Source: a virus
Taxonomy: Duplodnaviria > Caudoviricetes
Reading direction: 5' to 3' (one strand)
IMG/VR virus record: IMGVR_UViG_3300026541_000034
Coordinates: 3,257 to 67,256 of that record
DNA: 64,000 nucleotides
Positions within the stretch are counted from its first letter, which is position 1. Each line of letters begins with the position of its first letter. The notes below the pieces were generated by a model. It searched no databases and was not told the DNA's origin. It saw only the letters and a program-made list of their open reading frames with translations. Shown here piece by piece: positions 1-47,740 of the stretch. The translations under genes and the position numbers were made by a program.

Positions 1-326
1 GTGATGAAAATGAAATTATAAGCATCAGCTCCAGTCAATTGATTGTTGGTGAAGACGGCACCGGAGACTATGCGGTCTCATTTAATGCTAATTTTACCAG
101 CGATGCTGGTAGCAATTGCACTGCCCATTTGCGTATTAATGGTTTTGATACGACCAAGATCAAAGACGAACACCCTGGAGATAGTTCAGAGCTAGGAGAT
201 TTATCGGCCTCGGGTATAATGAAGTTGATAGAAGACGATTATCTCGAATTGCATTTTGAATCTGAAGATTCGGGTGACACGATTAAGGTGTATCAAGTGA
301 ATTTGAACATCAGGCGTATTTCATGA
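1..326 (+). CDS. 5'-truncated protein ending in a C1q/TNF-like jelly-roll domain (fibre/receptor-binding C-terminus)
   Basis: Frame open from position 3; G-D-Y-A-V-S-F..L-R-I-N-G..SASGIMKL..DDYLELH pattern of C1q-like domains. Confidence 0.65.
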   Translation, partial: DENEIISISSSQLIVGEDGTGDYAVSFNANFTSDAGSNCTAHLRINGFDTTKIKDEHPGDSSELGDLSASGIMKLIEDDYLELHFESEDSGDTIKVYQVNLNIRRIS

Positions 327-363
327 GTATGTATGGAATATAGTGACACGGAGTAACAGATAG

Positions 364-445
364 TTTATTCAATTAATTATGGAATCTGATGATTCGGGCT
401 GAAACGATTAAGGTCTATCAGGTTAATATCAGACGGATTTCATAA
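364..445 (+). pseudogene. Degenerate second copy of the 3' end of the C1q-like gene
   Basis: Translates FIQLIMESDDSG/(frameshift)ETIKVYQVNIRRIS* versus YLELHFESEDSGDTIKVYQVNLNIRRIS* at about 240-326. Confidence 0.8.
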
Positions 446-454
446 GGGATTGCT

Positions 455-634
455 ATGACACCAGTGGAAGCTTGGAAGGTTGTTCATCAAATAGCGAGAA
501 CTGCTCCTGTACCGGGAGATGTTGGCGACGCGAGGGATGAAGCTTTGGAAATATTGAGGCAATTGGCTGAAACAGAAGTTCGAAATGAGAAAAAGCAGGC
601 GGCCACAGAAAAGCCTAAATCGAAACATCAGTGA
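455..634 (+). CDS. Small hypothetical protein (59 aa)
   Basis: ATG..TGA ORF MTPVEAWKVVHQ..., AAGGGA upstream; below ORF-track cutoff. Confidence 0.5.
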   Translation: MTPVEAWKVVHQIARTAPVPGDVGDARDEALEILRQLAETEVRNEKKQAATEKPKSKHQ

Positions 635-827
635 ATGGATTGGTACAGCCATTGATGACAAGCCACGCAAGCGCGAGTGACATCCATAAAGGCATTGGCG
701 AGTTTCCGTTCTCGATGTTGGCGATTTGCCGCCCCGTATATCCGAGTATTTGACCGAGCTTTGCTTGTGAAAGCCTAAGCTGTTTTTTGCGCACGGACTT
801 CATGGTTGCTGGTGCAAGTGGTTGCAT
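615..827 (-). CDS. XRE/Cro-C1-type helix-turn-helix protein
   Basis: LSQAKLGQILGYTGRQIANIENG motif. Confidence 0.85.
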   Translation of the reverse strand: MQPLAPATMKSVRKKQLRLSQAKLGQILGYTGRQIANIENGNSPMPLWMSLALAWLVINGCTNPFTDVSI

Positions 828-842
828 AATATGGCCTTTCAT

Positions 843-888
843 ATAGATGGGGTGGTTGGCCCGATTCTCCGGAATCGGGCCGTCTTAT
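843..888 (-). repeat. Intergenic stem-loop, family A
   Basis: TAAGAC-GGCCCGATTC-CGGA-GAATCGGGCC directly after the upstream stop codon. Confidence 0.8.
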
Positions 889-1307
889 CAGGCCGGTATT
901 TCTTTGGCCTGTTCTTCTACTTCAATGTTCTCAAGTCCATTAGGGCCGCATTGGTTAAATTGAAAGTCAAAGTCACCAGGGCCTTCTTCTTTGATGGTTT
1001 CTCTCACTTGCGCGACCGCTTCGGCTGGTGTGGTGGCCAGAACGGTCACGGTAGCTTGAAGGGAATCAGTGGCTTCGGCGTTGACAGTGACGTCAAACGT
1101 TTTCAGCTTTTTATCGCCAGGTAAGACGAATTTATCGAATTCATTTATTTCTGGCATTGATAGGGGATATTCGGGTTCGCCTTCTAATGAACACCTAAGA
1201 AATTCGACTCCTTGAGCGCCCTTGTCTTGTATGCAATACAACCCTTGATCAGTGTTGCGGTAATATACGCGGCAAAAGTCCGCGTCTACTCTGTCAAAAT
1301 TGAACAT
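888..1307 (-). CDS. Hypothetical early protein (acidic)
   Basis: ORF MFNFDRVDADFCRVYY..., SD AAGGGA. Confidence 0.7.
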   Translation of the reverse strand: MFNFDRVDADFCRVYYRNTDQGLYCIQDKGAQGVEFLRCSLEGEPEYPLSMPEINEFDKFVLPGDKKLKTFDVTVNAEATDSLQATVTVLATTPAEAVAQVRETIKEEGPGDFDFQFNQCGPNGLENIEVEEQAKEIPA

Positions 1308-1324
1308 TACTACATCCCTTGCAT

Positions 1325-1384
1325 GATGCATGATTGCATCTCATGCCGCGCCACCATTGGGCAGCGCGGCATAGGTCGCAATCA
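1325..1384 (-). repeat. Intergenic stem-loop, family B
   Basis: TGATTGC-GA-CCT-ATGCCGCG..CGCGGCAT-GAG-AT-GCAATCA-TGCATC; begins with the stop codon TGA. Confidence 0.85.
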
Positions 1385-2035
1385 GGCGGCCTTTTCGATA
1401 AGCTTCAATTCATGGCCGGTCTGATGGACGAAGTCGGGCATAGTACCGAGATCGTCTGATTCGTTTACGCGAAGGCGCATTATAATAACCACGACGTTCT
1501 TATGGCCAGCAAATCGGACGACTCCGGGTGATTCTTTTCCGGAATTCATTTGCAATGCGTGGCTGTTGAGATCCATGCATGTCTTCGCGGCCATTGCCAT
1601 ATAAGACGGCGCATAAGCGTTTGAGTATTCGCCATGGCCGCTCATATCGATAGGGAATACGCGGCGGTAATCGGGAAATGTTCCTTCAATAAAAGGCCGC
1701 GATGATATTGCTATCGCTTCTTCTTTAAACTGTCCTTTCGTTGCGTAGACAATGACTTCACCCATATCCGCGCGAAGCCTAGTCTTGCAATCCTTTTTCG
1801 GCTTGCATGCCGCTAAAACTGGCTTGCTCACTTCGACAATTGCAGGCTCTGCGCAATAGCCGGACTCGTCGTGAATGGCTATTGCAACATGTCCATTCGT
1901 TGCTACCATCAAGACGCCACCTTCTGGATGAGGTGTCACATAGACGCCCATCAGGTAATAGCGCGTTTCTTCTTTTGAAACATATGGATAGCAAAGTCTA
2001 AAAAGGTTTGCGTCAACATCGATAGGTTTTTGCAT
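1382..2035 (-). CDS. DNA polymerase III beta-clamp-like protein, N-terminally shortened (217 aa)
   Basis: ETRYYLMGVY, VATNGH and IEGTFPDYRRVFP match the DnaN middle-domain motifs ETRYYLNG/VATDGHRL/IDGxFPDY. Confidence 0.8.
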   Translation of the reverse strand: MQKPIDVDANLFRLCYPYVSKEETRYYLMGVYVTPHPEGGVLMVATNGHVAIAIHDESGYCAEPAIVEVSKPVLAACKPKKDCKTRLRADMGEVIVYATKGQFKEEAIAISSRPFIEGTFPDYRRVFPIDMSGHGEYSNAYAPSYMAMAAKTCMDLNSHALQMNSGKESPGVVRFAGHKNVVVIIMRLRVNESDDLGTMPDFVHQTGHELKLIEKAA

Positions 2036-2069
2036 TTTTCTATTTCCCATTAAGTTAGCATTTTCGGAC

Positions 2070-2117
2070 CTAAGTCCGTCGCCCCACACTCGCGAGAATG
2101 TGGGGGAACTGGCTTAG
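2070..2117 (-). repeat. Intergenic stem-loop, family A
   Basis: CTAAGCCAGTT-CCCCCACATTC-TCGC-GAGTGTGGGG-CGACGGACTTAG. Confidence 0.9.
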
Positions 2118-2416
2118 CAGTTGAGATCCACGCAAAGACTGTCTATTGCTGAATCGTTCAAAATGTCTTGATCTCCACAGTCATGGCGTTGTAGGCTTCT
2201 AAGACCTTCAATGATTGTGTATATTTCGAGATCATTGAGTGGGTACATAGACTCTTTTCTTTTTTCCAGGTCATTGACTTCCTGTAGAGAAGCTTTAAGC
2301 CAATGGAATTGATTGGGAATCATTTTATGTGTAAGTTGATTTGTTTCTATAAAGTGAGTTAGTTGAAAACTAATCGTTCTATACAGTTCTAAAAGCTTTT
2401 TGTCTTTCTGGTCCAT
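2114..2416 (-). CDS. Hypothetical early protein, paralog of 2490-2702
   Basis: Shared QK..LL..Y..L...IE...LT..MIP....WL pattern; start context GGATATAGAAATG. Confidence 0.75.
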   Translation of the reverse strand: MDQKDKKLLELYRTISFQLTHFIETNQLTHKMIPNQFHWLKASLQEVNDLEKRKESMYPLNDLEIYTIIEGLRSLQRHDCGDQDILNDSAIDSLCVDLNC

Positions 2417-2439
2417 TTCTATATCCTCATGTTGTCGGG

Positions 2440-2487
2440 CTAGGCCCGTCGCCCTGCACTCTCACGAATGCAGGGAAAGAGGCTTAG
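2440..2487 (-). repeat. Intergenic stem-loop, family A
   Basis: CTAAGCCTCTTT-CCCTGCATTC-GTGA-GAGTGCAGGG-CGACGGGCCTAG. Confidence 0.9.
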
Positions 2488-2489
2488 TT

Positions 2490-2702
2490 TCATGCAAACT
2501 GGTCTCTAAGGCGAGTAAGGCTTATTGTTAGAGGGTTGCCTTGCTTAACCTTTACCTCCATGTCGATGGCTTCTAGCAGAGTAAGCAGAAGCCAATCATA
2601 ATCATCTGGTATCATTTCGTATGTAAGCCTACCGCCTTCGATCATGTCTGATAGGCCGTCATGAAGTGCTTCATATTTCTGCAAGAGCGTTTTCTGTGTC
2701 AT
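2490..2702 (-). CDS. Hypothetical early protein, paralog of 2114-2416
   Basis: MTQKTLLQKYEAL..LTYEMIPDDYDWL; same GGATATAGAAATG start context. Confidence 0.75.
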   Translation of the reverse strand: MTQKTLLQKYEALHDGLSDMIEGGRLTYEMIPDDYDWLLLTLLEAIDMEVKVKQGNPLTISLTRLRDQFA

Positions 2703-2726
2703 TTCTATATCCCTTTTTGTGGTGCG

Positions 2727-2783
2727 CTTAGTACGCCCCATGATCCGGCCGGACGAATCCGGCCGGACTTGCGAAGTACTTAG
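2727..2783 (-). repeat. Intergenic stem-loop, family A-like
   Basis: CTAAGTAC..TCCGGCCGGA-TTCG-TCCGGCCGGA..GTACTAAG; UUCG loop. Confidence 0.8.
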
Positions 2784-3328
2784 GCTTCCATCATTTCGTC
2801 ATAGATTTTGCATATGACGTAATCGATAGAGATCGCTTGACCGCTAGTAGGTCGGCCCCAAATAATGAGACCTTCAAAATCCATATCTACTTTTTCGCCT
2901 TTCTCTGCCAGCCTTTCGGCTAGGTACTTAGATACGATCCAGTGTTCATAAATTTCGACTTGATGCGGTTCTAAATTGTTGTGTTCGCAGTAATCCTGAT
3001 TACTGGTTTCCGCAATTTGCGAAATCATAGCCGTTCTGAGATCCTCAATTGGTTCATCATCACTGCAGGCAAATCCCCAATTTTCCAGGTAAGCAGTGAC
3101 GCTTTCCCGGTCTAGGTTGCGGACATGCTCAAATACAGGTTCTTCGTAATCATCTACGGGGCAAGACAGCTCAAAAGCCTTCTCGCATAGTTCGCTGAGT
3201 TCGCCTTTTGTTGTGCCGTATCCATTCGCAAGCGTACGGACAAGGCCATTAGCGCTATGACGAACTTCTTGGCTCACGAAATCAGAGACACAGCGTTGGT
3301 AATGGGCGTCTAAGTATTTGTCGTTCAT
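2780..3328 (-). CDS. Acidic hypothetical phage early protein
   Basis: 182-aa ORF with EIYEHWIVS..WGRPTSGQAI motif; SD GAAGGA. Confidence 0.8.
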   Translation of the reverse strand: MNDKYLDAHYQRCVSDFVSQEVRHSANGLVRTLANGYGTTKGELSELCEKAFELSCPVDDYEEPVFEHVRNLDRESVTAYLENWGFACSDDEPIEDLRTAMISQIAETSNQDYCEHNNLEPHQVEIYEHWIVSKYLAERLAEKGEKVDMDFEGLIIWGRPTSGQAISIDYVICKIYDEMMEA

Positions 3329-3335
3329 AATTTGT

Positions 3336-3405
3336 CCTTCGCCACTCGATGCCTAATTGCATCCCATACCGCGCCACTAGGGCGACGCGGTAAAGGCTGG
3401 AATTA
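3336..3405 (-). repeat. Intergenic stem-loop, family B
   Basis: TAATTCC-AG-CCT-TTACCGCG..CGCGGTAT-GGG-AT-GCAATTA-GGCATCGAGTGGCGAAGG. Confidence 0.85.
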
Positions 3406-3645
3406 CAGCGCAATGGCTTGCGCTAGGTGCTTGAAATAATGCAGCACGTCGCCATTCAGGAAGTCAATTTTAACGATTGTGGTCTTGATCGCGTCTCGTT
3501 CGTTTCTGGGTGCTTGTTTCATTGCTTCGACAAGACAGCCAACGGGGATTCTATTTTCTCCACTTGGCCCATCGACAACAAGCATTTGCTCTGCGTCGAT
3601 TCCCTTTTCACTTAGAAACGTGTCAAGCCATTTTGAAAATGTCAT
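3403..3645 (-). CDS. Conserved hypothetical phage protein
   Basis: MTFSKWLDTFLSEKG..IVKIDFLNGDVLHYFKHLA; SD GAAGG. Confidence 0.8.
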   Translation of the reverse strand: MTFSKWLDTFLSEKGIDAEQMLVVDGPSGENRIPVGCLVEAMKQAPRNERDAIKTTIVKIDFLNGDVLHYFKHLAQAIAL

Positions 3646-3651
3646 GGTGTA

Positions 3652-3717
3652 CCTTCGCCACTTGATGCTTGATTGCATCCCGCGCCACGCCGCAAAGTGT
3701 GGTGCAGGTTGAAATCA
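3652..3717 (-). repeat. Intergenic stem-loop, family B
   Basis: TGATTTC-AA-CCT-GCACCACAC..GCGTGGCGC-GGG-AT-GCAATCA-AGCATCAAGTGGCGAAGG. Confidence 0.85.
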
Positions 3718-3720
3718 ATT

Positions 3721-3769
3721 CTCAGTGTCTTCAAGGTCAACCTGCTAACAGGATGACCGAGAGGCTTAG
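3721..3769 (-). repeat. Intergenic stem-loop, family A
   Basis: CTAAGCCTCTC-GGTCA-T-CCTG-TTAG-CAGG-T-TGACC..GACACTGAG; in tandem with a family B element. Confidence 0.75.
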
Positions 3770-3966
3770 GCGTATTTGGCGATATGCTTGAGAAAGATTT
3801 CTAGGTCGGTTCCGCCATTTCGTAAAAATACCAGACTAATTTCAGCCAGCATGGTCATGGTAGCGTCACATTCTGCGATCTCGTCCATGACATATTCGCG
3901 GTTCCCATTTATCCAAGAAATATACAGTTCGGTTGCACGTTCGGCTGTACCGATTACCATTTTCAT
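3766..3966 (-). CDS. Hypothetical protein, first gene of the early operon
   Basis: 66-aa ORF, SD AGAGGA. Confidence 0.7.
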   Translation of the reverse strand: MKMVIGTAERATELYISWINGNREYVMDEIAECDATMTMLAEISLVFLRNGGTDLEIFLKHIAKYA

Positions 3967-4093
3967 TTTCCTCTAAGGTTTGACCTTAAAGAAACTGAGA
4001 AGCACCTTGAGCGTCTGCTCTTTTCCCGCTTCGCCGTTCGTGTCCACCTTACGCGGTTTCGGGCTCTGCGTTGTCTGCTGCTGTTGTCCCTTC

Positions 4094-4122
4094 AATATAA
4101 GAACTCATTTCCTATTTGTCAA
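4094..4122 (-). promoter_or_regulatory. Sigma70-type promoter of the early operon
   Basis: TTGACA (4122-4117), 17-nt spacer, TATATT (4099-4094). Confidence 0.8.
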
Positions 4123-4154
4123 GTGGGCCTTATGAAATAGTTTCTGGTGACGTC

Positions 4155-4676
4155 ATGACCGAAAATACTAAAAATGCTCTTGTCGTGTACGACGGCGAGG
4201 AATCGCCTTTCGGCCTGCCAGACTTGACGGATAGTCAAATGAATTTCGTGCTTGGGATCGTCGCGGGGAAGAACGCTTCGGACGCCTACCGCGCGGCGTA
4301 CAACGCGGAAAACATGAGCGCGCCGGCCATTTGGGTAGAAGCCAGCCGGCTACGGTCTAATACTAAGGTCGCCCTATGGCTGGAACATGTGAAGGAGATG
4401 GCGCTTATTGACATTGCTTGCACTCGTGAAGCTCATCTTCGCGAACTTGAGCGATTAAAATTCTTGGCGCTAAAAAATAACAACATGGTCGCCGCGATCA
4501 ACTGCGAACATCTGCGCGGCAAGGTGTGCGGACTCTATGTGGAGCTACGCGCCGACGTTACGCCTCCTGATCCGATACGGACCTTGAACGAGATCGCAAA
4601 GCTGAATCCGCAACTCGCAGAAGCGCTGGCCGTGAAACACAATGTCGCATGGCAGCTTAAGGAAACAGTCCATTGA
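4155..4676 (+). CDS. terS: Terminase small subunit
   Basis: LTDSQMNFV..GKNASDAYRAAY..ASRL..N.KV HTH pattern of Terminase_2. Confidence 0.8.
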   Translation: MTENTKNALVVYDGEESPFGLPDLTDSQMNFVLGIVAGKNASDAYRAAYNAENMSAPAIWVEASRLRSNTKVALWLEHVKEMALIDIACTREAHLRELERLKFLALKNNNMVAAINCEHLRGKVCGLYVELRADVTPPDPIRTLNEIAKLNPQLAEALAVKHNVAWQLKETVH

Positions 4677-4960
4677 GCAAGCGTCCTTTCCTCGTCAATG
4701 ACCAAACGAATGTCGTCCACATGGGGCCGGTTCGGGAAAGCCATGAAAAGCGTTTAGAGAACTTGAAGGAAATCATCGCGGTTCAGCTACTTGACGGGCA
4801 TTGGAACCTTGACCCGTATATGCTCGGTTTGGCCAATGGCTTGCTCCTCGCGCAATCAATCATGGACGAGATTGACCCAAAATTTCTTTACGCGCCGGAC
4901 GCCTGGAAAGCGGACGAGATCGCGAACTGTGAACCGCCCCAACCGGAAAGTACAGCATGA
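4673..4960 (+). CDS. Hypothetical protein
   Basis: ORF overlapping the terS stop and the next start. Confidence 0.6.
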   Translation: MSKRPFLVNDQTNVVHMGPVRESHEKRLENLKEIIAVQLLDGHWNLDPYMLGLANGLLLAQSIMDEIDPKFLYAPDAWKADEIANCEPPQPESTA

Positions 4961-5484
4961 CAACGATTGTTACAGATGGCCGCATTGTCGCCTCGGATAC
5001 CCAAGCCGATTGTGGTGGCGTAATAGACTCCGGTAATCACGATAAAGTGATCGAATATAAAGGAAAAGTGTTCGCGCTTTGCGGCGCGGTTGCATTCCTT
5101 CAACCTCTGGCAGAGTGGTATATTGCTGGCAAAGATCCGCAATCTATGCCGCGCGGCGATAAAGAAAATCGGAATCTCCATTATGCATTTTGGGCCTTCG
5201 ATGCTGGAAAGCTCTGGGAATTCAATCACACTATGCCCTATCCGGTTGAATGCTTCGCCCCTGCTTTCTTTGGTAGTGGCCGCGAGATTGCATTAGGTGC
5301 TTTCGCGTCAAATCCATCGCCAGTCGAAGCGGTAAGGAAGGCTATGAAATGGGACGTCTATACAGGGGGCGAAGTGCGAGTCCTTGAATTGCCAAAGCAT
5401 TTGCAGATTGCCCAAAGTGAGCCCGGTATCATCGAACAAGCGGCGCCTGTAAACGGAACAGAGCCAGCTTGGATGAATGACTAA
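4957..5484 (+). CDS. HslV/proteasome-beta-like Ntn peptidase
   Basis: N-terminal MTTIV, ASDTQ, DKV, GSG..ALGA..EAV..A...D.YTGG. Confidence 0.8.
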   Translation: MTTIVTDGRIVASDTQADCGGVIDSGNHDKVIEYKGKVFALCGAVAFLQPLAEWYIAGKDPQSMPRGDKENRNLHYAFWAFDAGKLWEFNHTMPYPVECFAPAFFGSGREIALGAFASNPSPVEAVRKAMKWDVYTGGEVRVLELPKHLQIAQSEPGIIEQAAPVNGTEPAWMND

Positions 5485-5547
5485 ACTATCTTGCATTGCC
5501 TGATTCGTCGTGGTAGATCGAAAGGTGTTGTCATTGGAAGGGCAAGT

Positions 5548-5733
5548 ATGACGATTGTTGCTAATCGCCACTATCGGCAATCGTTGGCTATGTGGGTTCA
5601 CCTCCTAAGTCCTTGCTCACTCATTGGCCACACTTGGAACGGAGCGACTGCCATTTTTCCCCCGCCGGTTCAGTGGCAGTCGCTCGAATTCTTCGGGGAT
5701 GGCATGAGGCAACTCTATCCTTCTAGAATTTAG
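5548..5733 (+). CDS. Small hypothetical protein
   Basis: ATG with SD GGAAGG. Confidence 0.4.
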   Translation: MTIVANRHYRQSLAMWVHLLSPCSLIGHTWNGATAIFPPPVQWQSLEFFGDGMRQLYPSRI

Positions 5734-5742
5734 TTTCCTTCT

Positions 5743-5790
5743 AGGATGGGTGACTGTCATTCGATCGCAACTTATGGCAGTCACCTACCT
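5743..5790. terminator. Long hairpin where the two operons converge
   Basis: GGTGACTGTCAT..ATGGCAGTCACC stem. Confidence 0.6.
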
Positions 5791-6003
5791 TGAAAAATGA
5801 AAAGTAGTCCCATTGAAAACCAGTCGGCAACAGTCCCACTTCCAGCGCCGCGCCGTGAGACAAGGCGACATAGCTAAGTAAGCCTTGGTCGCCCTTTCCT
5901 CGCATCCATGATCACGAAGCCATTGATTGAACAGAAGGACAGCTTCGAACTCATGTTCAGCATGGCCTAAGAGCTGGGTGCTTAGGTAGACCGGATGTTT
6001 CAT
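5785..6003 (-). CDS. Hypothetical protein
   Basis: 72-aa ORF coupled to the upstream gene by ATGA overlap. Confidence 0.6.
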   Translation of the reverse strand: MKHPVYLSTQLLGHAEHEFEAVLLFNQWLRDHGCEERATKAYLAMSPCLTARRWKWDCCRLVFNGTTFHFSR

Positions 6004-6320
6004 TGCTTGGGTTCGTCTGCCAGCGCAACCATAGCCTTACCGGTTTCCAAGTCCAGGTAGGAGAAAACCATTTCGAATGAAATGCTATCCGCGCGCGGTT
6101 CATAGCCTTGTGATATCGCGAAGGCTTCCAGGTTCCTACGCATATGCGTAAGAGTGCGTATCTGCACCCGATGGACAATCTTACGCGCAACCTTGCGCAG
6201 GCGGGACATAATTATTGGGTGATTGGCCATGTATGAAAAAAGGCCGTATTCGTTCTCAGCAATCTGGCTGGCAACGCCGTCTATAAAATCTTCTTCAGTC
6301 ATTGCATACCTCGCAATCAT
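6000..6320 (-). CDS. Hypothetical protein
   Basis: ORF in the minus-strand operon; start uncertain. Confidence 0.6.
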   Translation of the reverse strand: MIARYAMTEEDFIDGVASQIAENEYGLFSYMANHPIIMSRLRKVARKIVHRVQIRTLTHMRRNLEAFAISQGYEPRADSISFEMVFSYLDLETGKAMVALADEPKQ

Positions 6321-6549
6321 CTAGGGGGCACGGCTCAAGATCGCCGATTCCAGATAGTAGATCTTTTCCAATCCATGGCCAATTTGGTTTCTTGCGATCA
6401 TCCCATAGACACCAGCTATGCATCCCATAGCCAAACCATTTACCCGTAGGCGCGTAAATAGTAATGTGGTGGCGCGAACCGCTTTTGTCTTGCATTAGCT
6501 CAATGCCGTTCAGTGCAGCCCACGCTAAAATCTCTCGCTTCGTTTTCAT
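6295..6549 (-). CDS. His/Cys-rich small protein, paralog 1 (CPLDDCEVC)
   Basis: MKTKREILAW..HHITIYAP..H..C.W..KPNW..EPCPLDDCEVC. Confidence 0.8.
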   Translation of the reverse strand: MKTKREILAWAALNGIELMQDKSGSRHHITIYAPTGKWFGYGMHSWCLWDDRKKPNWPWIGKDLLSGIGDLEPCPLDDCEVCND

Positions 6550-6598
6550 GGTATTCTCCAATGAAGAAGGCGGCCACTCGATCATGACCGCCTCGCTA

Positions 6599-6850
6599 TT
6601 AGCTGTGACAGACTTCGCAGTCATCCAGGGGACACGGCTCTATTTCGCCACCACTAAGCAAGTCTCGCCCAATGTATGCCCAGTCCGGCTTTGATCCGCT
6701 CCATACGCATAAATTGTGAATGCCATGGGAAGCAAACCACATGCCGTTAGGTGCATAGAGATGTATGTGGTGATCACAAAAGCTGTACTCTTGATCCATG
6801 TGGATATCATGGAGCTTAAGCCATGCTAAAACTTCTCGTTTCGTTTTCAT
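6599..6850 (-). CDS. His/Cys-rich small protein, paralog 2 (CPLDDCEVC)
   Basis: MKTKREVLAW..HHIHLYAP..H..C.W..KPDW..EPCPLDDCEVC. Confidence 0.8.
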   Translation of the reverse strand: MKTKREVLAWLKLHDIHMDQEYSFCDHHIHLYAPNGMWFASHGIHNLCVWSGSKPDWAYIGRDLLSGGEIEPCPLDDCEVCHS

Positions 6851-6981
6851 ATCATCATGCCCACAATCAGGCCAGCAATCTGCAGAGTGATGTAAACCGC
6901 TCCCAGAGCCATCACCGTCTTGAAACTCATGAGCTTGTCAATAAAGTCACTCATGATAAATCTTACTAATAATTCTCTCAT
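6847..6981 (-). CDS. Small membrane peptide
   Basis: C-terminal hydrophobic helix VMALGAVYITLQIAGLIVGMMI; start uncertain. Confidence 0.5.
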   Translation of the reverse strand: MRELLVRFIMSDFIDKLMSFKTVMALGAVYITLQIAGLIVGMMI

Positions 6982-7272
6982 TTTGTCGCCTTTCAATAAG
7001 AGGGTATGCAAAATTAAATTTGCTAAATTAATTGTCGCGTGGTATTCAATGATCGTTAGAACTTTTGAAACTGTCGAACTGTGCTTCACATGATGGCGGG
7101 TTTTGGTGTGAACTTCTGAAACCCGTCATTGTGTTTTTTAATTTGAAATGAAAAAGGTCGCCCGCGCGCGTATAGTATAGGGTAAGGGCATGCTGGCTGT
7201 AGGGTAAAAGTTGAATTGTGCTCGTGCTTCTCGTTTTGGGTAGCCGCCCCGATGGTCTGGGGCGGCCTTGGT

Positions 7273-7437
7273 CTACTCTGGGTTCGCTAGGAGCCAGAGC
7301 CGGACTTGTTCGAGGGCTTCGCGATCTGAGTCCGTGAGCGTCGGTTTCGCCGGTTTGGCGTGGCGCTTTCGGGTTGCCCAGACCGAGTCCCGTTCGCCTA
7401 TCGGCGTTGGGGTTCGGCGTGGTTCGCCTGGCTGCAT
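7273..7437 (-). CDS. Small basic protein (54 aa)
   Basis: MQPGEPRRTP..LWLLANPE*, SD AAGGAC, followed by a GC hairpin at about 7243-7267. Confidence 0.55.
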   Translation of the reverse strand: MQPGEPRRTPTPIGERDSVWATRKRHAKPAKPTLTDSDREALEQVRLWLLANPE

Positions 7438-7505
7438 CGTGCGTGTCCTTTTCGTTGCTGTACCCTAGATATGGGGATTCCGAGGTGGTTTTGCAAGTCG
7501 AAACC

Positions 7506-7569
7506 GATCACGATTTGATCACACCGTGTCACGATTTCGTGACCGTGATTGCGTTCACATTTTCGTGAC
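7506..7569. promoter_or_regulatory. Array of three TCAC..GTGA-type palindromes (operator or packaging-protein sites)
   Basis: GATCACGATTTGATC, GTCACGATTTCGTGAC, TCACATTTTCGTGA in the divergent non-coding region. Confidence 0.55.
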
Positions 7570-7804
7570 AATCTGGGGCAAAAGCAGAACGCTTTCCATA
7601 ATGTTTATTATGCGAATCAAATCAGTGGCATATTTACCACGCTCTCACGCTCACCTATAGGTCAACGCCTGCCCACGCTGTGGCCCACGCCAGCCCTGCC
7701 GCTCGCTCGCGTGCCAGTCGCTGGCGCTCTGGGCCTGGGCCTGGGCGCGGCGCTCTACAGGAAGGCCGCACACCCCCTGGCGTCTGGCGCGGGGTCTCCA
7801 GACC

Positions 7805-7833
7805 TCATCATTCGTCCAGACAAATCCAAACGG
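7805..7833 (+). repeat. 29-nt repeat, copy 1
   Basis: TCATCATTCGTCCAG-N7-CAAACGG. Confidence 0.8.
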
Positions 7834-7852
7834 GTTTTAGGGATCACGGTTT

Positions 7853-8104
7853 ATGGATGCGAAGCTTAGGACGTGGGCAGATGCCAATTCCGCAGAGGCA
7901 ATAGTTAAGGGTGCGCGCGATCTTATGCACTTTGTCGATCGGCTTGAGCGTCACGACAGGGAGCAAGCGATAAACAATATGATTTGCCGGTGCGGTCACA
8001 GGCATGCTGATCATACTAAATCTTACTGCATCAACTACACGGGTGGTTTTTGCAAGATTTGCGACTGCAAGAATTTTCTTTACGACGCGGAAAAAACAAT
8101 ATGA
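7853..8104 (+). CDS. Hypothetical protein with Cys/His zinc-finger-like motif
   Basis: CRCGH.HADH..C..C.ICDC. Confidence 0.65.
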   Translation: MDAKLRTWADANSAEAIVKGARDLMHFVDRLERHDREQAINNMICRCGHRHADHTKSYCINYTGGFCKICDCKNFLYDAEKTI

Positions 8105-8397
8105 AACTGGAAGTAGATTTATTGCGAGAAATTCTACTTTTCGCCAATGATACGCTGGGGCACATGGCGCCGGAAGATTTCAATGATTATCCACGAGATA
8201 TTGCTCTTGATCAGTTTCAATTTTTGGTTGATAGCAAGCTGGTGCATGGTACGTACATTGATGGTTGTCTATGTGGTTTACGCGGTCTTACAAGGCATGG
8301 CCGTCGCAAAATGGCCAGCGTCCCAGATTCGAAAGTTTGGAAGTCGGCCATCAGGTCTGTTCGGGAAGAATATTTTCTGGTGCATTTAGCGGTATAG
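8101..8397 (+). CDS. DUF2513-like winged-helix protein
   Basis: MK.EVDLLREILL..GLTRHG pattern; paralog of 16299-16667. Confidence 0.6.
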   Translation: MKLEVDLLREILLFANDTLGHMAPEDFNDYPRDIALDQFQFLVDSKLVHGTYIDGCLCGLRGLTRHGRRKMASVPDSKVWKSAIRSVREEYFLVHLAV

Positions 8398-8402
8398 CCA
8401 TT

Positions 8403-8431
8403 TCATCATTCGTCCAGCGGATTTCAAACGG
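8403..8431 (+). repeat. 29-nt repeat, copy 2
   Basis: TCATCATTCGTCCAG-N7-CAAACGG. Confidence 0.8.
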
Positions 8432-8584
8432 ACTACCGCAGCGCGATCTAGGCGCTAGATACCATCCAGGCGCCACGGAGCAGCCGCGCAGCGAGCGTTA
8501 GCTCATAGCTAGCAATATTGGCTACGTCGGCGGAGCGCGCATCAAGCCACCCTTCACGCAACTCTAGACGGAGATTACACACTC

Positions 8585-9061
8585 ATGGATTGTGATGGTG
8601 ATACCAAGCAAGTTAGAATTTTCAATGTAGAGGGTGATCCAGGCCCAGCCGGCCCGGCGGGTGATCCTGGAGCGCCGGGGTTGCGAGGAGAAGCTGGTTT
8701 TCCTGGACAGGCGGGTCCAGCAGGCGTTGCTGGTCAACCGGGGCGGCAAGGGCTGAATGGGTTGGATGGGCTGCAGGGCGATCAAGGACCTCCTGGGGCG
8801 CAAGGTCCAGCAGGACCTTCCCTCAATATTCCAGTTTTTGCACTGATGCACGACTTTCCAAGTGATGGTTCGATCTTATTGGCTTTTTACCGGCCTCCAT
8901 ATGGCATATCTAACAATACCGGTGGCAAAGCAGTAGATCAGCAATTATTGCATTTTGTTGGTGGCAATGGAAAATGGAGCGATATTGAGATTTACCGGGA
9001 TGCTACTAAAACCACACGAATAGGTACATCTACTAGAACGGGATGGCGCGCATTATGGTAA
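8585..9061 (+). CDS. Collagen-like protein (21 Gly-X-Y triplets) with a small C-terminal domain
   Basis: [14 protein letters not shown] followed by G-X-Y run; SD GGAG. Confidence 0.85.
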
Positions 9062-9118
9062 TATGCGCACTGATTATGTGCGGCTTGGGTGGCGTTTTTA
9101 AACGGAGATTACCTTGTT

Positions 9119-9454
9119 ATGGAATGCAATACTGACACTAAGCAGGTTCGAGTTTATAATATTGAGGGTGATCCTGGACCTGCTGGACCTATGGGTCCAC
9201 CTGGTCCCGCTGGCACCGGTTCTCTTATTTATGATAATCTGAGTAATTTTCCTACGGATGGCTCTGCTTTGATAGCTTATTTCCAGCCGGAGTTTGGCAT
9301 AAACAGGAATGGCGGCGTATATGCTGATCGGATATGTTGTTTTTTTGCAGGAGGCAACGCTCCACCTGCAAGCGTTTTGTTTTTTACGAATGCTGAGAGG
9401 ACTCAACAGACGAGTGCCAGATTACAGCCAGGGTGGGTAGTCTTGTATTTTTGA
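9119..9454 (+). CDS. Collagen-like paralog (about 5-6 triplets)
   Basis: [28 protein letters not shown]; same GGAGATTAC start context and C-terminal domain. Confidence 0.85.
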   Translation: MECNTDTKQVRVYNIEGDPGPAGPMGPPGPAGTGSLIYDNLSNFPTDGSALIAYFQPEFGINRNGGVYADRICCFFAGGNAPPASVLFFTNAERTQQTSARLQPGWVVLYF

Positions 9455-9573
9455 CTTAGGGCCTAGACACCGCTCTTCACCCACGCTAAATTGATTGATC
9501 GCCGCCAAGCACACCCGATATAGGGGACATTGAAGGGCCGCACGCGGACACGTTCGGCTCTTCATCCTGGTTG

Positions 9574-9586
9574 CTTCCGGAACACA
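9574..9586 (+). repeat. 13-bp direct repeat, left of the R-M module
   Basis: CTTCCGGAACACA. Confidence 0.85.
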
Positions 9587-9597
9587 TTGCCTGGGGT

Positions 9598-10587
9598 ATG
9601 AATATCAAATCTTTAAATACAGGTCTCCGTAAGGCAGCCAAAGCAAAGAAAGACGAGTTTTATACCCAGCTTGGTGATATTGAAAAAGAGCTAAAACACT
9701 ACAAAGATCAATTCCGCGGCAAAGTAGTATTTTGCAATTGCGATGACCCAAGAGAAAGCAATTTCGTCAAATATTTCAGCATGAATTTTGAACATTTGGG
9801 GTTGAAGAAATTGATCGCTACACATTTTCAAGATGCGGATTTATTTACGAGAGAGCATCCATATAAATTGGAATACACTGGCGATAAAAACGCTAACCGC
9901 ATACCTGATCCAGACGAGTTTACTATCGAGATGATAGGTACTGGCGACTTTCGTAGCGAAGAGTGCATAGAGCTGCAGAAAGAAGCTGATATTGTCGTAA
10001 CTAACCCGCCATTTTCTCTGTTTCGTGAGTATCTGGCACAGCTTGTGGAATATGAAAAAAAGTTTTTGATTATCGGTAGTAAAAACGTAATTACTTATAA
10101 AGATGTATTTCCTTTGATAAAGGAAAACAAAATGTGGCTTGGGTATGGATTTGAAAGAGGTAATGCATATTTTCAGACGCCATATAGCAATGATAGCTAT
10201 GCAAGCGGCGTGTACAATCCAGAAACCGGCCTTGTAAAATTTCGTAATGTAGGTTGGTTTACAAACCTTGATACCACAAAGCGTCACGAAGATTTGGTTC
10301 TTTACAAAAAATACACTCTCGCAGAATTTCCTAACTATGATAACTACGATGCGATCAATGTTAATAAAGTAGCTGACATACCAATGGATTATGACGGTTT
10401 TATGGGCGTACCGATTACCTTCACTGATAAATACAATCCTGACCAATTTGAAATGTTTGGGATAATGAACACGGGTGAAGAGAACAAGGGTATAAGGTAT
10501 GAAGGAACGCCTCATGGCAGGCCAGTAATCAACGGCGTTGAAAAATATTTGCGTATTTTAATAAAAAATAAGAAAATAAATAATTAA
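9598..10587 (+). CDS. Adenine-specific DNA methyltransferase, EcoRI-methylase family
   Basis: AKKDEFYT, VFCNCDDP and VTNPPFS motifs. Confidence 0.92.
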   Translation: MNIKSLNTGLRKAAKAKKDEFYTQLGDIEKELKHYKDQFRGKVVFCNCDDPRESNFVKYFSMNFEHLGLKKLIATHFQDADLFTREHPYKLEYTGDKNANRIPDPDEFTIEMIGTGDFRSEECIELQKEADIVVTNPPFSLFREYLAQLVEYEKKFLIIGSKNVITYKDVFPLIKENKMWLGYGFERGNAYFQTPYSNDSYASGVYNPETGLVKFRNVGWFTNLDTTKRHEDLVLYKKYTLAEFPNYDNYDAINVNKVADIPMDYDGFMGVPITFTDKYNPDQFEMFGIMNTGEENKGIRYEGTPHGRPVINGVEKYLRILIKNKKINN

Positions 10588-46296: not shown

Positions 46297-46545
46297 CACT
46301 TGGGCGCACTTGGGCGCAGAATCGACGGTTGCGCCCAAGAGGATTACTTGGGCGCACCTTGGGCGTTCACATTCCGTTCACCGCACATAATAAGGGTTTG
46401 TCCAGCCGCATCAACACCTTGAAAAGCCGCAAGAAACCATATAGTACAACGGTTACTTAATGGGGCGTAGCGGCTAAGTATCATCCGAATTCTTCTGTAC
46501 TTTCAATGACTTGAAGACCATCGCTTGGGCGCATGTTGGGCGCAT
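46297..46545. other. attP region with integrase arm-type repeats
   Basis: Seven TTGGGCG(CA) copies: 46297, 46307, 46330 (inverted), 46346, 46358, 46524, 46535. Confidence 0.75.
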
Positions 46546-47740
46546 ACAGGTTTTTGGCGCTCTTTTGATTGAGGGTTTTCATGATCAAATCCGTCGCATC
46601 CCTGGCATTTACCAAATGGTTAGGCGAGAAGCTTTCATACCATTCCTCGGTGGTGCGATGATCGGGATCTGTGTGCCCCATCCACGCAGCGCGCTCCTCT
46701 CTCGACACCGGCATTCCTTGCAATGATCTTGTCCGTGTCGCCATATAATGGCGCAGCGTATACGGCACGAATTCCGGCATTCCGACTTTGGCCGTGATCT
46801 TTTTGAAGGTCTTATTGTTGATCGTTATGATCGCGCGCCTTCCATAAAAAATAGGGCGGTCCACGTCCCAGTCGAGATACCAGCCGCGCAGATTATCGGT
46901 CAGTCTTATCTTCGGGCGGATCTTTTTTGTCTGCACCCGTCCAGGCGGATTCAGGTCGATAATGCCGCGCTCAAAATCAACCTGGTTGTTGATGCTGAGT
47001 TCTATGTTTGCTTCCGGACGCGCCCACGTATTCAGCGCCTGAATGACAAAGCGGAAAATGTGCTCATGCTCGATGGCGTTGATGAATTTTACCAACTGGC
47101 TGTCGTTCGGTATCCACTCACGCCGGCTTGGCCGGGGCTGGTTGGTGACTTTGCAAATCAAATCTATTTTGCAATGAATGATGTGCGTGCGGTTCAAGAT
47201 CACAACCTCACGCTCCTCGCCCTTGCTGTCATAAATCAGGTAGGGATCGATGGCGCGCGCCATGGCCGCTTTGATGGTTGATAGATAGGTGTAGATCGTT
47301 TTTGCCTTGAAGCCATGTTCATCGCTGCACCACTTCATGAAGGCGCGCTGTCTGGCCAGGGTAAAGTCGGCAACCTTGGGCGCTGCCGACACGGTCTTTA
47401 GGTATTCATTGACCAGAGTGCAGGCGCGACCGGCTGCGCCGCTGGCGCGGATGCCGTTGCCGTGGCTGTCCATGTAGAATTTTAGAACTTGCGCCATCAA
47501 AACCGCTTCCGGCGATAGCGGCTCATTCTCTGGCTCGCCGTAAACAATGGCAATAAGAAGGTCTTTGGCTTCTTCTAGGTCACTGGTTCCAAGAGACGCA
47601 CGGCGCGTGCGTCTAAGTCCGGGGTCATACCAATAACGGTAGAAGTTTTCCGAGCCTTCCTTTTGTTCGAGCCATTGACCTTTAACTTCGAGGATACGTC
47701 CATTTTCCTGGACTGGCCCGCCAGTTCGTTTTTTCCGCAT
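46481..47740 (-). CDS. int: Tyrosine recombinase / integrase
   Basis: WARPEA (R), YTLRHYMATR, MGH and terminal Y motifs. Confidence 0.92.
   Translation of the reverse strand: MRKKRTGGPVQENGRILEVKGQWLEQKEGSENFYRYWYDPGLRRTRRASLGTSDLEEAKDLLIAIVYGEPENEPLSPEAVLMAQVLKFYMDSHGNGIRASGAAGRACTLVNEYLKTVSAAPKVADFTLARQRAFMKWCSDEHGFKAKTIYTYLSTIKAAMARAIDPYLIYDSKGEEREVVILNRTHIIHCKIDLICKVTNQPRPSRREWIPNDSQLVKFINAIEHEHIFRFVIQALNTWARPEANIELSINNQVDFERGIIDLNPPGRVQTKKIRPKIRLTDNLRGWYLDWDVDRPIFYGRRAIITINNKTFKKITAKVGMPEFVPYTLRHYMATRTRSLQGMPVSREERAAWMGHTDPDHRTTEEWYESFSPNHLVNARDATDLIMKTLNQKSAKNLYAPNMRPSDGLQVIESTEEFG

Follow-up and report, generated by a model that had tools for sequence, protein, structure and literature searches.

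The window analysed here is a 64,000-nucleotide (nt) stretch of the Caudoviricetes record IMGVR_UViG_3300026541_000034 (bases 3257-67256 of a 67,256-bp contig), in which an operon of eight small minus-strand genes carries a hairpin in every one of its intergenic gaps (45-120 nt). Two of these hairpins, A1 and A2, make up family A, an element whose inner stem has changed its sequence on both sides among related phages and has remained paired in every copy. We put at roughly 55% the probability that the gap hairpins act on the sense-strand mRNA, where they would block decay, mark processing sites, or both. Their structure, conservation, strand preference and duplication origin we regard as established, and from sequence comparison we infer the function as decay barriers or processing sites, together with any role for RNase III.

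Covariation and origin of the family A hairpins

2065..2117, minus strand: A1, in the gap between the 100-amino-acid (aa) and 217-aa genes (folds, alignment, covariance model)
2436..2487, minus strand: A2, between the paralogs of 70 aa and 100 aa (folds, alignment, covariance model)

On the sense (minus) strand both core copies read CTAAGCC-NN-TT-N-CCC-(N4)-TTC-(4-nt loop)-GAG-(N4')-GGG-CGACGG-RCYTAG, with the 4-bp box in the state CACA/TGTG at 2117..2070 and TGCA/TGCA at 2487..2440. The initial annotation had described both sequences, at 2070-2117 and 2440-2487, as we find them on this strand; the terminal CTTAG that it gave to the family is present in the first copy and not in the second, which ends CCTAG. 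The two copies fold at -28.4 kcal/mol (2117..2070) and -27.7 kcal/mol (2487..2440), with z close to -4.1 for both. In A1, the stop codon of the 100-aa gene, TAA, lies inside CTAAGCC (2117-2111); the 10-bp upper stem with its 4-nt loop occupies 2105-2082, two pairs beyond a bulged C lengthen this stem to 2107-2079, and a 5-bp mini-hairpin follows at 2078-2065. The upper stem of A2 spans 2475-2452, with the TGCA/TGCA box and a GUGA loop, and its mini-hairpin occupies 2448-2436.

Homologs of the 100-aa protein (P0002-P0004) and of the 217-aa protein gave access to four related contigs: L001, a phage of 67.5 kb whose gene order matches that of the window, L058 (4.8 kb), L002 (0.8 kb) and L003 (1.2 kb). 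Their six family A copies and the two of the window were aligned. The 10-bp upper stem is paired in all eight copies, and four of its pairs show two-sided changes while none shows a one-sided change, which strengthens the earlier observation that the inner stem switches with pairing preserved. The 4-bp box occurs in four states (CACA/TGTG, CACG/CGTG, TGCA/TGCA and CATG/CATG) between invariant flanks. The covariation score of the alignment is 0.319, against 0.159 +/- 0.027 in shuffles, and none of 500 shuffles equals it; as the copies are related and hold about four independent double substitutions, this shuffle figure is not a probability. Slid registers gave no double changes. The compensatory changes thus keep the inner stem paired, which argues that its structure is under selection.

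The wobble pairs bear on the question of which strand folds. U25.G34 is a wobble on the sense strand in all eight family A copies, and pair 17-43 alternates between C-G and U.G (four copies each). In hairpin C, which separates the 182-aa gene from the 70-aa gene, the sense-strand wobbles are U17.G55 and G23.U48. On the plus strand these pairs turn into C.A mismatches, and folds of that strand show gaps; an RNA fold on the transcript is therefore favoured.

The outer CTAAGCC/GGRCYTAG stem, which the initial annotation had taken to be conserved and paired, shows zero covariation among the eight copies. Its pair 9-50 is an A.C mismatch in all four A2 copies, and the outer stem of A1 contains a bulged A (T on the plus strand). 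The 3' strand of this stem can instead form the 5-bp mini-hairpin (CGGAC-UUAG-GUCCG in A1, CGGGC-CUA-GCCCG in A2), which pairs in all eight copies, with a single A-U to G-C covariation. Outer stem and mini-hairpin are nearly equal in energy, with a probability of the outer stem, P(outer), that ranges from 0.04 to 0.96 across the copies, and CTAAGCC may pair in the outer stem or leave its partner to the mini-hairpin. The sequence CTAAGCC matters beyond its stop-codon role, because it is kept in L002 and L003 although the upstream gene ends there one base earlier, at TGA. Across the window CTAAGCC is found 14 times against 6.3 expected, with 13 of the 14 on the minus strand and three within the operon. 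Several of those outside the operon lie within long plus-strand open reading frames (ORFs) and read GGCTTAG on that strand, and the excess outside the operon may reflect codon usage.

A covariance model built from the eight copies (R1) gives 81.1 bits to A1 and 73.5 bits to A2. No third copy was found in the 67-kb genome by regular expression, fuzzy search or the covariance model. The family had at first been drawn with five members, a grouping that the model does not recover: the hairpin at 843-888 (the 843 hairpin) receives 9.1 bits at E 4.4, and neither 2727-2783 nor 3721-3769 is reported at E <= 10. The CTAAG...CTTAG ends do not define a family either, given that CTAAG-N25-50-CTTAG is found twice against 0.82 expected and 21 of 100 shuffles reach two.

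The genes upstream of A1 and A2 are paralogous (BLASTP of the 100-aa against the 70-aa protein: E 7e-11, 36% identity across 56 aa), and a leader, TTTCTRKKKCATTTCTATATCC, is duplicated as well, at 2405-2426 and 2691-2712. These duplicated surroundings indicate that A1 and A2 arose by one tandem duplication of leader, gene and hairpin, and not as independent insertions or as copies of a mobile element.

Scans of IMG/VR, JGI and GTDB data did not find the family A motif outside this narrow phage lineage. Motif scans of IMG/VR and a protein-based locus search found nothing, and a sensitive DNA search of 50,697 phage records with positions 1-8000 gave no match. The motif scan of JGI metagenomes returned 54 matches, none in a CTAAGCC context and all judged to be chance; two of the 54 have complementary boxes, both within unrelated G+C-rich sequence. 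No Rfam family matched anywhere in the window at gathering thresholds. In a more distant relative, L059, the homolog of the 217-aa protein has 39% identity, the layout is different and there is no family A element.

The operon, its other hairpins and its mosaic relatives

615..3966, minus strand: operon of eight small genes (ORF list, Pfam and PHROG matches, structured windows)
4122..4094, minus strand: sigma70-like promoter TTGACA-17-TATATT, 11 of 12 consensus matches, upstream of the whole operon
3966..3766, minus strand: 66-aa gene
3735..3769, minus strand: hairpin D, 3' of the 66-aa gene, stop context CCTAAGCC
3645..3403, minus strand: 80-aa gene (phrog_6004)
3328..2780, minus strand: 182-aa gene
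2730..2780, minus strand: hairpin C, between the genes of 182 aa and 70 aa (fold, relatives)
2702..2490, minus strand: 70-aa gene, shortened tandem paralog of the 100-aa gene, stop codon within CTAAG of A2
2416..2114, minus strand: 100-aa gene, paralog of the 70-aa gene, stop codon within CTAAG of A1
2038..2047, minus strand: translation leader GG(A/G)(A/T)ATAGAA directly before ATG, also at 2417-2426 and 2703-2712
2035..1382, minus strand: 217-aa gene (phrog_3007)
1313..1387, minus strand: family B hairpin, GATGC..TGATTGCATC..CCGCGCC (repeat search)
1307..888, minus strand: 139-aa gene
858..881, minus strand: 843 hairpin, a perfect 10-bp stem with a 4-nt loop, between the 139-aa and helix-turn-helix genes
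842..615, minus strand: 75-aa gene, helix-turn-helix protein

Hairpin C is an irregular 20-pair helix with a UUCG loop and an inner perfect 10-bp stem at 2744-2767, and folds at -37.8 kcal/mol (z -4.88). Among four sequences, 100% of its alignment cells are paired and four pairs have changed on both sides. It is not homologous to family A, gives no match to the covariance model and has in common with it only the stop context CCTAAG. In hairpin D the stem GGUCA-U-CCUG / CAGG-U-UGACC lies at 3758-3735 and the sense fold is weak (-14.6 kcal/mol, z -0.82); three sequences hold one compensatory pair (U-A to C-G), and the closing pair is broken in L058. As the initial annotation had it, the regions containing these two hairpins, 2727-2783 and 3721-3769, share a (C)CTAAG start; this start is on the sense strand and overlaps the stop codon of the upstream gene. 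Also accurate was its account of the 843 hairpin, GGCCCGATTC-tccg-GAATCGGGCC, a generic hairpin lacking CTAAG ends; in the orthologs of L001 and L058 the loop alone varies and the stem is kept. The remaining three gaps are occupied by family B, a second hairpin family unrelated to family A, with further copies at 3336-3405 and 3652-3716 and arms of 20-24 nt that are about 80% complementary. Together, these comparisons indicate that selection for pairing is real across all gaps of the operon.

The promoter at 4122..4094 is the sole strong site in a consensus scan and points away from the small terminase gene, and the sequence from promoter to first gene (window 4078-3959) has 98% identity to L001. 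The same scan found no promoter-like site in the operon gaps, and a scan of the minus strand from 1 to 4300 found no terminator-like site. The simplest reading of this layout would be a single leftward polycistronic transcript. A regular-expression search of the genome found the translation leader GG(A/G)(A/T)ATAGAA at its three listed positions only.

Measured by identity to L001, the gaps are conserved as much as, or more than, the adjoining genes. The A1 gap is 92% identical, against 78% and 86% for its neighbours, and the hairpin C gap 95%, against 79% and 82%. For the hairpin D gap the figure is 92%, against 65% for the 66-aa gene; only this flank can be compared, because the other neighbour in L001, a 112-aa ORF, is not present in the window. 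The operon is a mosaic of identity levels, with the 80-aa gene block at 98-100% between window and L001 and its neighbours at 55-80%. The block at 3330-3700 consists of the 80-aa gene and the adjoining halves of two family B gaps, with L058 at about 82% there, and looks like a recent exchange with ends in the family B elements. Two other high-identity blocks, at 2808-2598 and 2217-1800, pass through hairpin C and A1 and do not end there.

Gene content differs in two places. Between hairpin D and the family B element, L001 (8351-8689) and L058 (1677-2018) have a gene of 112/113 aa. The window (3717-3721) lacks just this ORF, and keeps hairpin D and the family B element back to back in a 120-nt gap. 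In L058, one hybrid gene of about 101 aa at 3044-3350 replaces both paralogs (window 2114-2702) and is followed by A1 only. Its N-terminal half is like the 70-aa gene and its C-terminal half like the 100-aa gene, where the start is taken as the ATG at 3044 (the gene caller gives a 115-aa ORF from 3003). The hybrid could be either the product of unequal crossover within the coding sequence or the state before the duplication. Neither of the two differences fits hairpin-to-hairpin excision.

Processing and decay hairpins among the possible explanations

Under the reading that we prefer, a polycistronic early transcript would begin at the 4122..4094 promoter and proceed leftward, and each gap would open with a stop codon in (C)TAAG, continue with a stable hairpin whose loop is 4 nt long and close with a short, A-rich leader that is single-stranded and carries the ribosome binding site. 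The hairpins would halt 3'-to-5' exonucleases or show endonucleases where to process the RNA, or do both. Cutting would turn the long transcript into segments, each ending in a protective hairpin, and these segment-end hairpins would set the stability and yield of each gene. The location of all operon genes on the minus strand, behind one strong promoter, supports this reading.

Intercistronic decay terminators, which shield the upstream segment from 3' exonucleases, occur as hairpins in the Rhodobacter puf operon and as repetitive extragenic palindromic (REP) hairpins in malE-malF of Escherichia coli; REP elements are dispersed and present in many copies. The phage elements share with these the presence of stable hairpins between the genes of one operon. 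They differ in that all gaps of eight genes have a hairpin, of several unrelated sequence types, and in that family A comprises two adjacent copies rather than many dispersed ones.

For the processing side of the proposal, family A would have the general shape of a T7-type RNase III site. A typical E. coli RNase III substrate has about two helical turns, and internal loops confine cleavage to one strand, leaving a protective 3' hairpin; the minimal substrate has 11 bp between cut and loop, and a UA/UG distal box adjoins the tetraloop (PMC1540722). The T7 signal R1.1, located between genes 1.0 and 1.1, forms a hairpin of 60 nt whose internal loop is 4/5 nt (PMC6121014). In family A, the upper helix is 10-12 bp long with an invariant U-A and U.G beside the loop-closing pair (positions 2-3 from the loop), an internal loop or bulge contains an invariant CGAC, and a 7-bp lower helix is optional. 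With 19 pairs in the long form and 20 in hairpin C, the helices make about two turns, and the 10 contiguous pairs with two more past the bulge come up to the size given for RNase III, two turns or at least 11 bp (PMC1540722). The internal loop, AGUUC or UCUUU opposite CGAC, exists only when the lower stem forms (P 0.04 to 0.96). Much like the T7 early signals, these are intergenic hairpins in what would be a phage early polycistronic transcript made by the host RNA polymerase, with about two helical turns, a possible internal loop and a tetraloop-capped upper stem of at least 10-11 bp, and their U-A and U.G near the loop resemble the UA/UG distal box (PMC1540722; PMC6121014). Family A differs from R1.1 in having no sequence similarity to it and no Rfam match, a G-C rich base of the upper stem and a lower helix that is unsupported by covariation; the RNase III of the likely alphaproteobacterial host, moreover, would differ in its preferences. 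The phage genome has no RNase III gene of its own, and the host enzyme would therefore have to act.

Several points weigh against this interpretation. The upper-stem base is CCC/GGG where the proximal box would lie, and G-C pairs in that box hinder E. coli RNase III from binding or cutting (PMC1540722). A strict RNase III version is also weakened by the lower helix, which covariation does not support. The E. coli rules may not carry over to the host, as Sinorhizobium meliloti RNase III cleaves R1.1 at atypical sites (PMC6121014). Hairpins 843 and D reach only about 10 bp. Folding of both strands, which the initial annotation had called for, favours the sense strand for the supported helices and the plus strand for these two (843, -26.7 against -19.4 kcal/mol on the sense strand; D, -21.1 against -14.6 kcal/mol). 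Tetraloop identity was tried as a strand indicator and set aside, since the commonest sense loop, UCGC, reads GCGA (GNRA) on the antisense strand; loop identity does not decide the strand. Concerted correction at the DNA level, by template switching in a palindrome, would also fit, because the 4-bp box shows no one-sided intermediates, and would give the same pattern without selection at the RNA level. Cleavage and the stabilising effect are predictions.

Other functions can be proposed for the same hairpins. They might be transcription attenuators or terminators without a U-tract that stage expression of the operon, perhaps with read-through by a phage antiterminator, and their stability, G+C-rich stems and position directly after stop codons would suit that function, as would the precedent of the promoter-early stem-loop (PeSL) cassettes of T4-type phages, whose stem-loops terminate transcription between small phage genes (PMC2839356). 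We nevertheless judge it unlikely: no sense-strand T-run follows any hairpin, the sequences 3' of the stems (GAAAAUGC, ACAACAUG and AACCACCC) lack the U-tract of an intrinsic terminator, the minus-strand scan of 1-4300 was empty, and no antiterminator was identified. As the eight genes share one promoter, the distal ones would be silenced if termination after each gene were efficient. We are similarly doubtful of a role in translation, in which a local fold would shield the ribosome binding sites from interference by adjacent coding sequence, or pairing between the CCUCU flank of A2 and D and the Shine-Dalgarno sequence would couple neighbouring genes, a terminating ribosome freeing the Shine-Dalgarno sequence from the flank. 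The stop codon lies within the element, which means that a terminating ribosome must open the lower stem, and the closeness in energy of outer stem and mini-hairpin (P(outer) 0.04 to 0.96 in the eight copies) would suit such a switch. The leader GGATATAGAA-ATG is conserved, and some minimum-energy folds of the window's A2 and of L003_A2 pair CCUC with GAGG or GGAG of the next ribosome binding site. This predicted pairing is missing, however, in the A1 copies and in L002_A2 (flank CCAGUU), and about 75 nt makes a long gap for coupling.

The remaining alternatives place the function in DNA. PeSL elements of T4-type phages combine a sigma70 promoter with a terminator stem-loop and recur many times (PMC2839356, PMC4122927), and the hairpins might be linkers of a similar sort for homologous recombination, letting genes move as modules; such a function would be compatible with a further one in RNA. 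Both show conserved stem-loop motifs among small genes whose function is unknown, in a phage region that varies, and in both the gene content beside the motifs differs among close relatives. The operon is mosaic, its 80-aa block (98-100% to L001) ends within two family B gaps, the gaps are conserved more than the genes, and the presence or absence of the 112-aa ORF falls exactly between hairpin D and a family B element. We still consider such linkers improbable, given that the high-identity blocks cross the hairpins at 2808-2598 and 2217-1800 rather than end there, that family A is not at the mosaic breakpoints and has just two copies, adjacent to each other (each hairpin type has 2-3), and that the L058 hybrid gene would come from a crossover within coding sequence; the gaps, having no promoter, lack the defining composite of PeSL. 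A broader version, in which the structured gaps (A, B and the single hairpins) are dedicated module boundaries for gain, loss and exchange of single accessory genes, would make them a promoter-less analogue of PeSL or integron cassettes, possibly aided by hairpin or cruciform formation or by a divergent tyrosine recombinase; we give it very little credence.

The initial annotation had drawn a parallel to integron attC sites, which would be folded as single-stranded DNA for a tyrosine recombinase and would make the operon an integron-like cassette array. The core sites of attC are RYYYAAC ... GTTRRRY, with conserved AAC/GTT triplets. Family A resembles them as an imperfect palindrome at or near the stop (here TAA) of a small gene, with conserved ends, a variable paired centre and a bulged outer-stem base, and the genes are small and all co-oriented. 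The phage also encodes, at 46481-47740 on the minus strand, a 419-aa protein that matches the integrase family phrog_1 (E 1.3e-20), has no Pfam match and reaches 23.5 bits on NF040815 (a XerA/integron-integrase model) against a cut-off of 220; by these scores it is a very divergent tyrosine-recombinase-like protein. We find the parallel scarcely credible. The ends of family A are CTAAGCC ... GGACTTAG or GGGCCTAG, so that the triplets are AAG and CTT or CCT rather than AAC and GTT. The phage has neither IntI nor attI, PF00589 has no match in the genome, and the recombinase-like ORF is 43 kb away. Covariation is lacking in the outer stem, which in A2 contains the A.C mismatch, and the wobble pairs speak for the sense RNA strand. 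The 112-aa indel spares both adjoining hairpins, where attC x attC excision would take one, and the motif is absent from IMG/VR and GTDB genomes, the JGI matches being chance. Three defining features of attC (core triplets, integrase and cassette indel pattern) thus speak against the parallel. On a fourth, paired R and L boxes with extrahelical bases on the recombined strand, the signs are mixed: the outer stem of A1 has its bulged A, but that stem lacks covariation, is mismatched in A2 and competes with the covarying mini-hairpin. An integron-like identity would have been important, and it is not supported. Most likely, the elements are ordinary hairpins between the genes of a phage early operon and not a new kind of system.

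Genome context and significance

The contig ends overlap by 117 bp (G000 1-117 / 67140-67256), which indicates that the phage genome is complete and either circular or terminally redundant. It encodes small and large terminase subunits, a head-tail adaptor and tail fibres, as well as a DnaB-like helicase and the divergent integrase-like protein. A full MucR/Ros regulator is present (PF05443, E 2.7e-47); this family is mostly alphaproteobacterial, and its presence therefore suggests an alphaproteobacterial host. The motif scan of GTDB genomes gave no match, and so identified neither a prophage copy nor the host.

Two other regions of the window drew our attention. A plus-strand gene that enters the window has its 3' end partly duplicated about 125 bp downstream (247-327 and 371-446, 79-84% identity), in what looks like the remnant of a swapped C-terminal module. 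Another small-gene region, at 5600-9600, contains a second cluster of very stable 60-nt windows, such as 7241-7300 (-33.9 kcal/mol) and 7681-7740 (-35.2 kcal/mol), and may have gap hairpins similar to those of the 615-3966 operon.

If the gap hairpins do stabilise or process the mRNA, the early operon of this uncultured phage would show, in a clean natural case, how selection acts on RNA structure, with four compensatory pair changes inside one 4-bp box between invariant flanks. It would also supply a compact substrate on which mRNA processing and decay could be tested in the probable alphaproteobacterial hosts. The same hairpins could then be reused as insulators for building operons.

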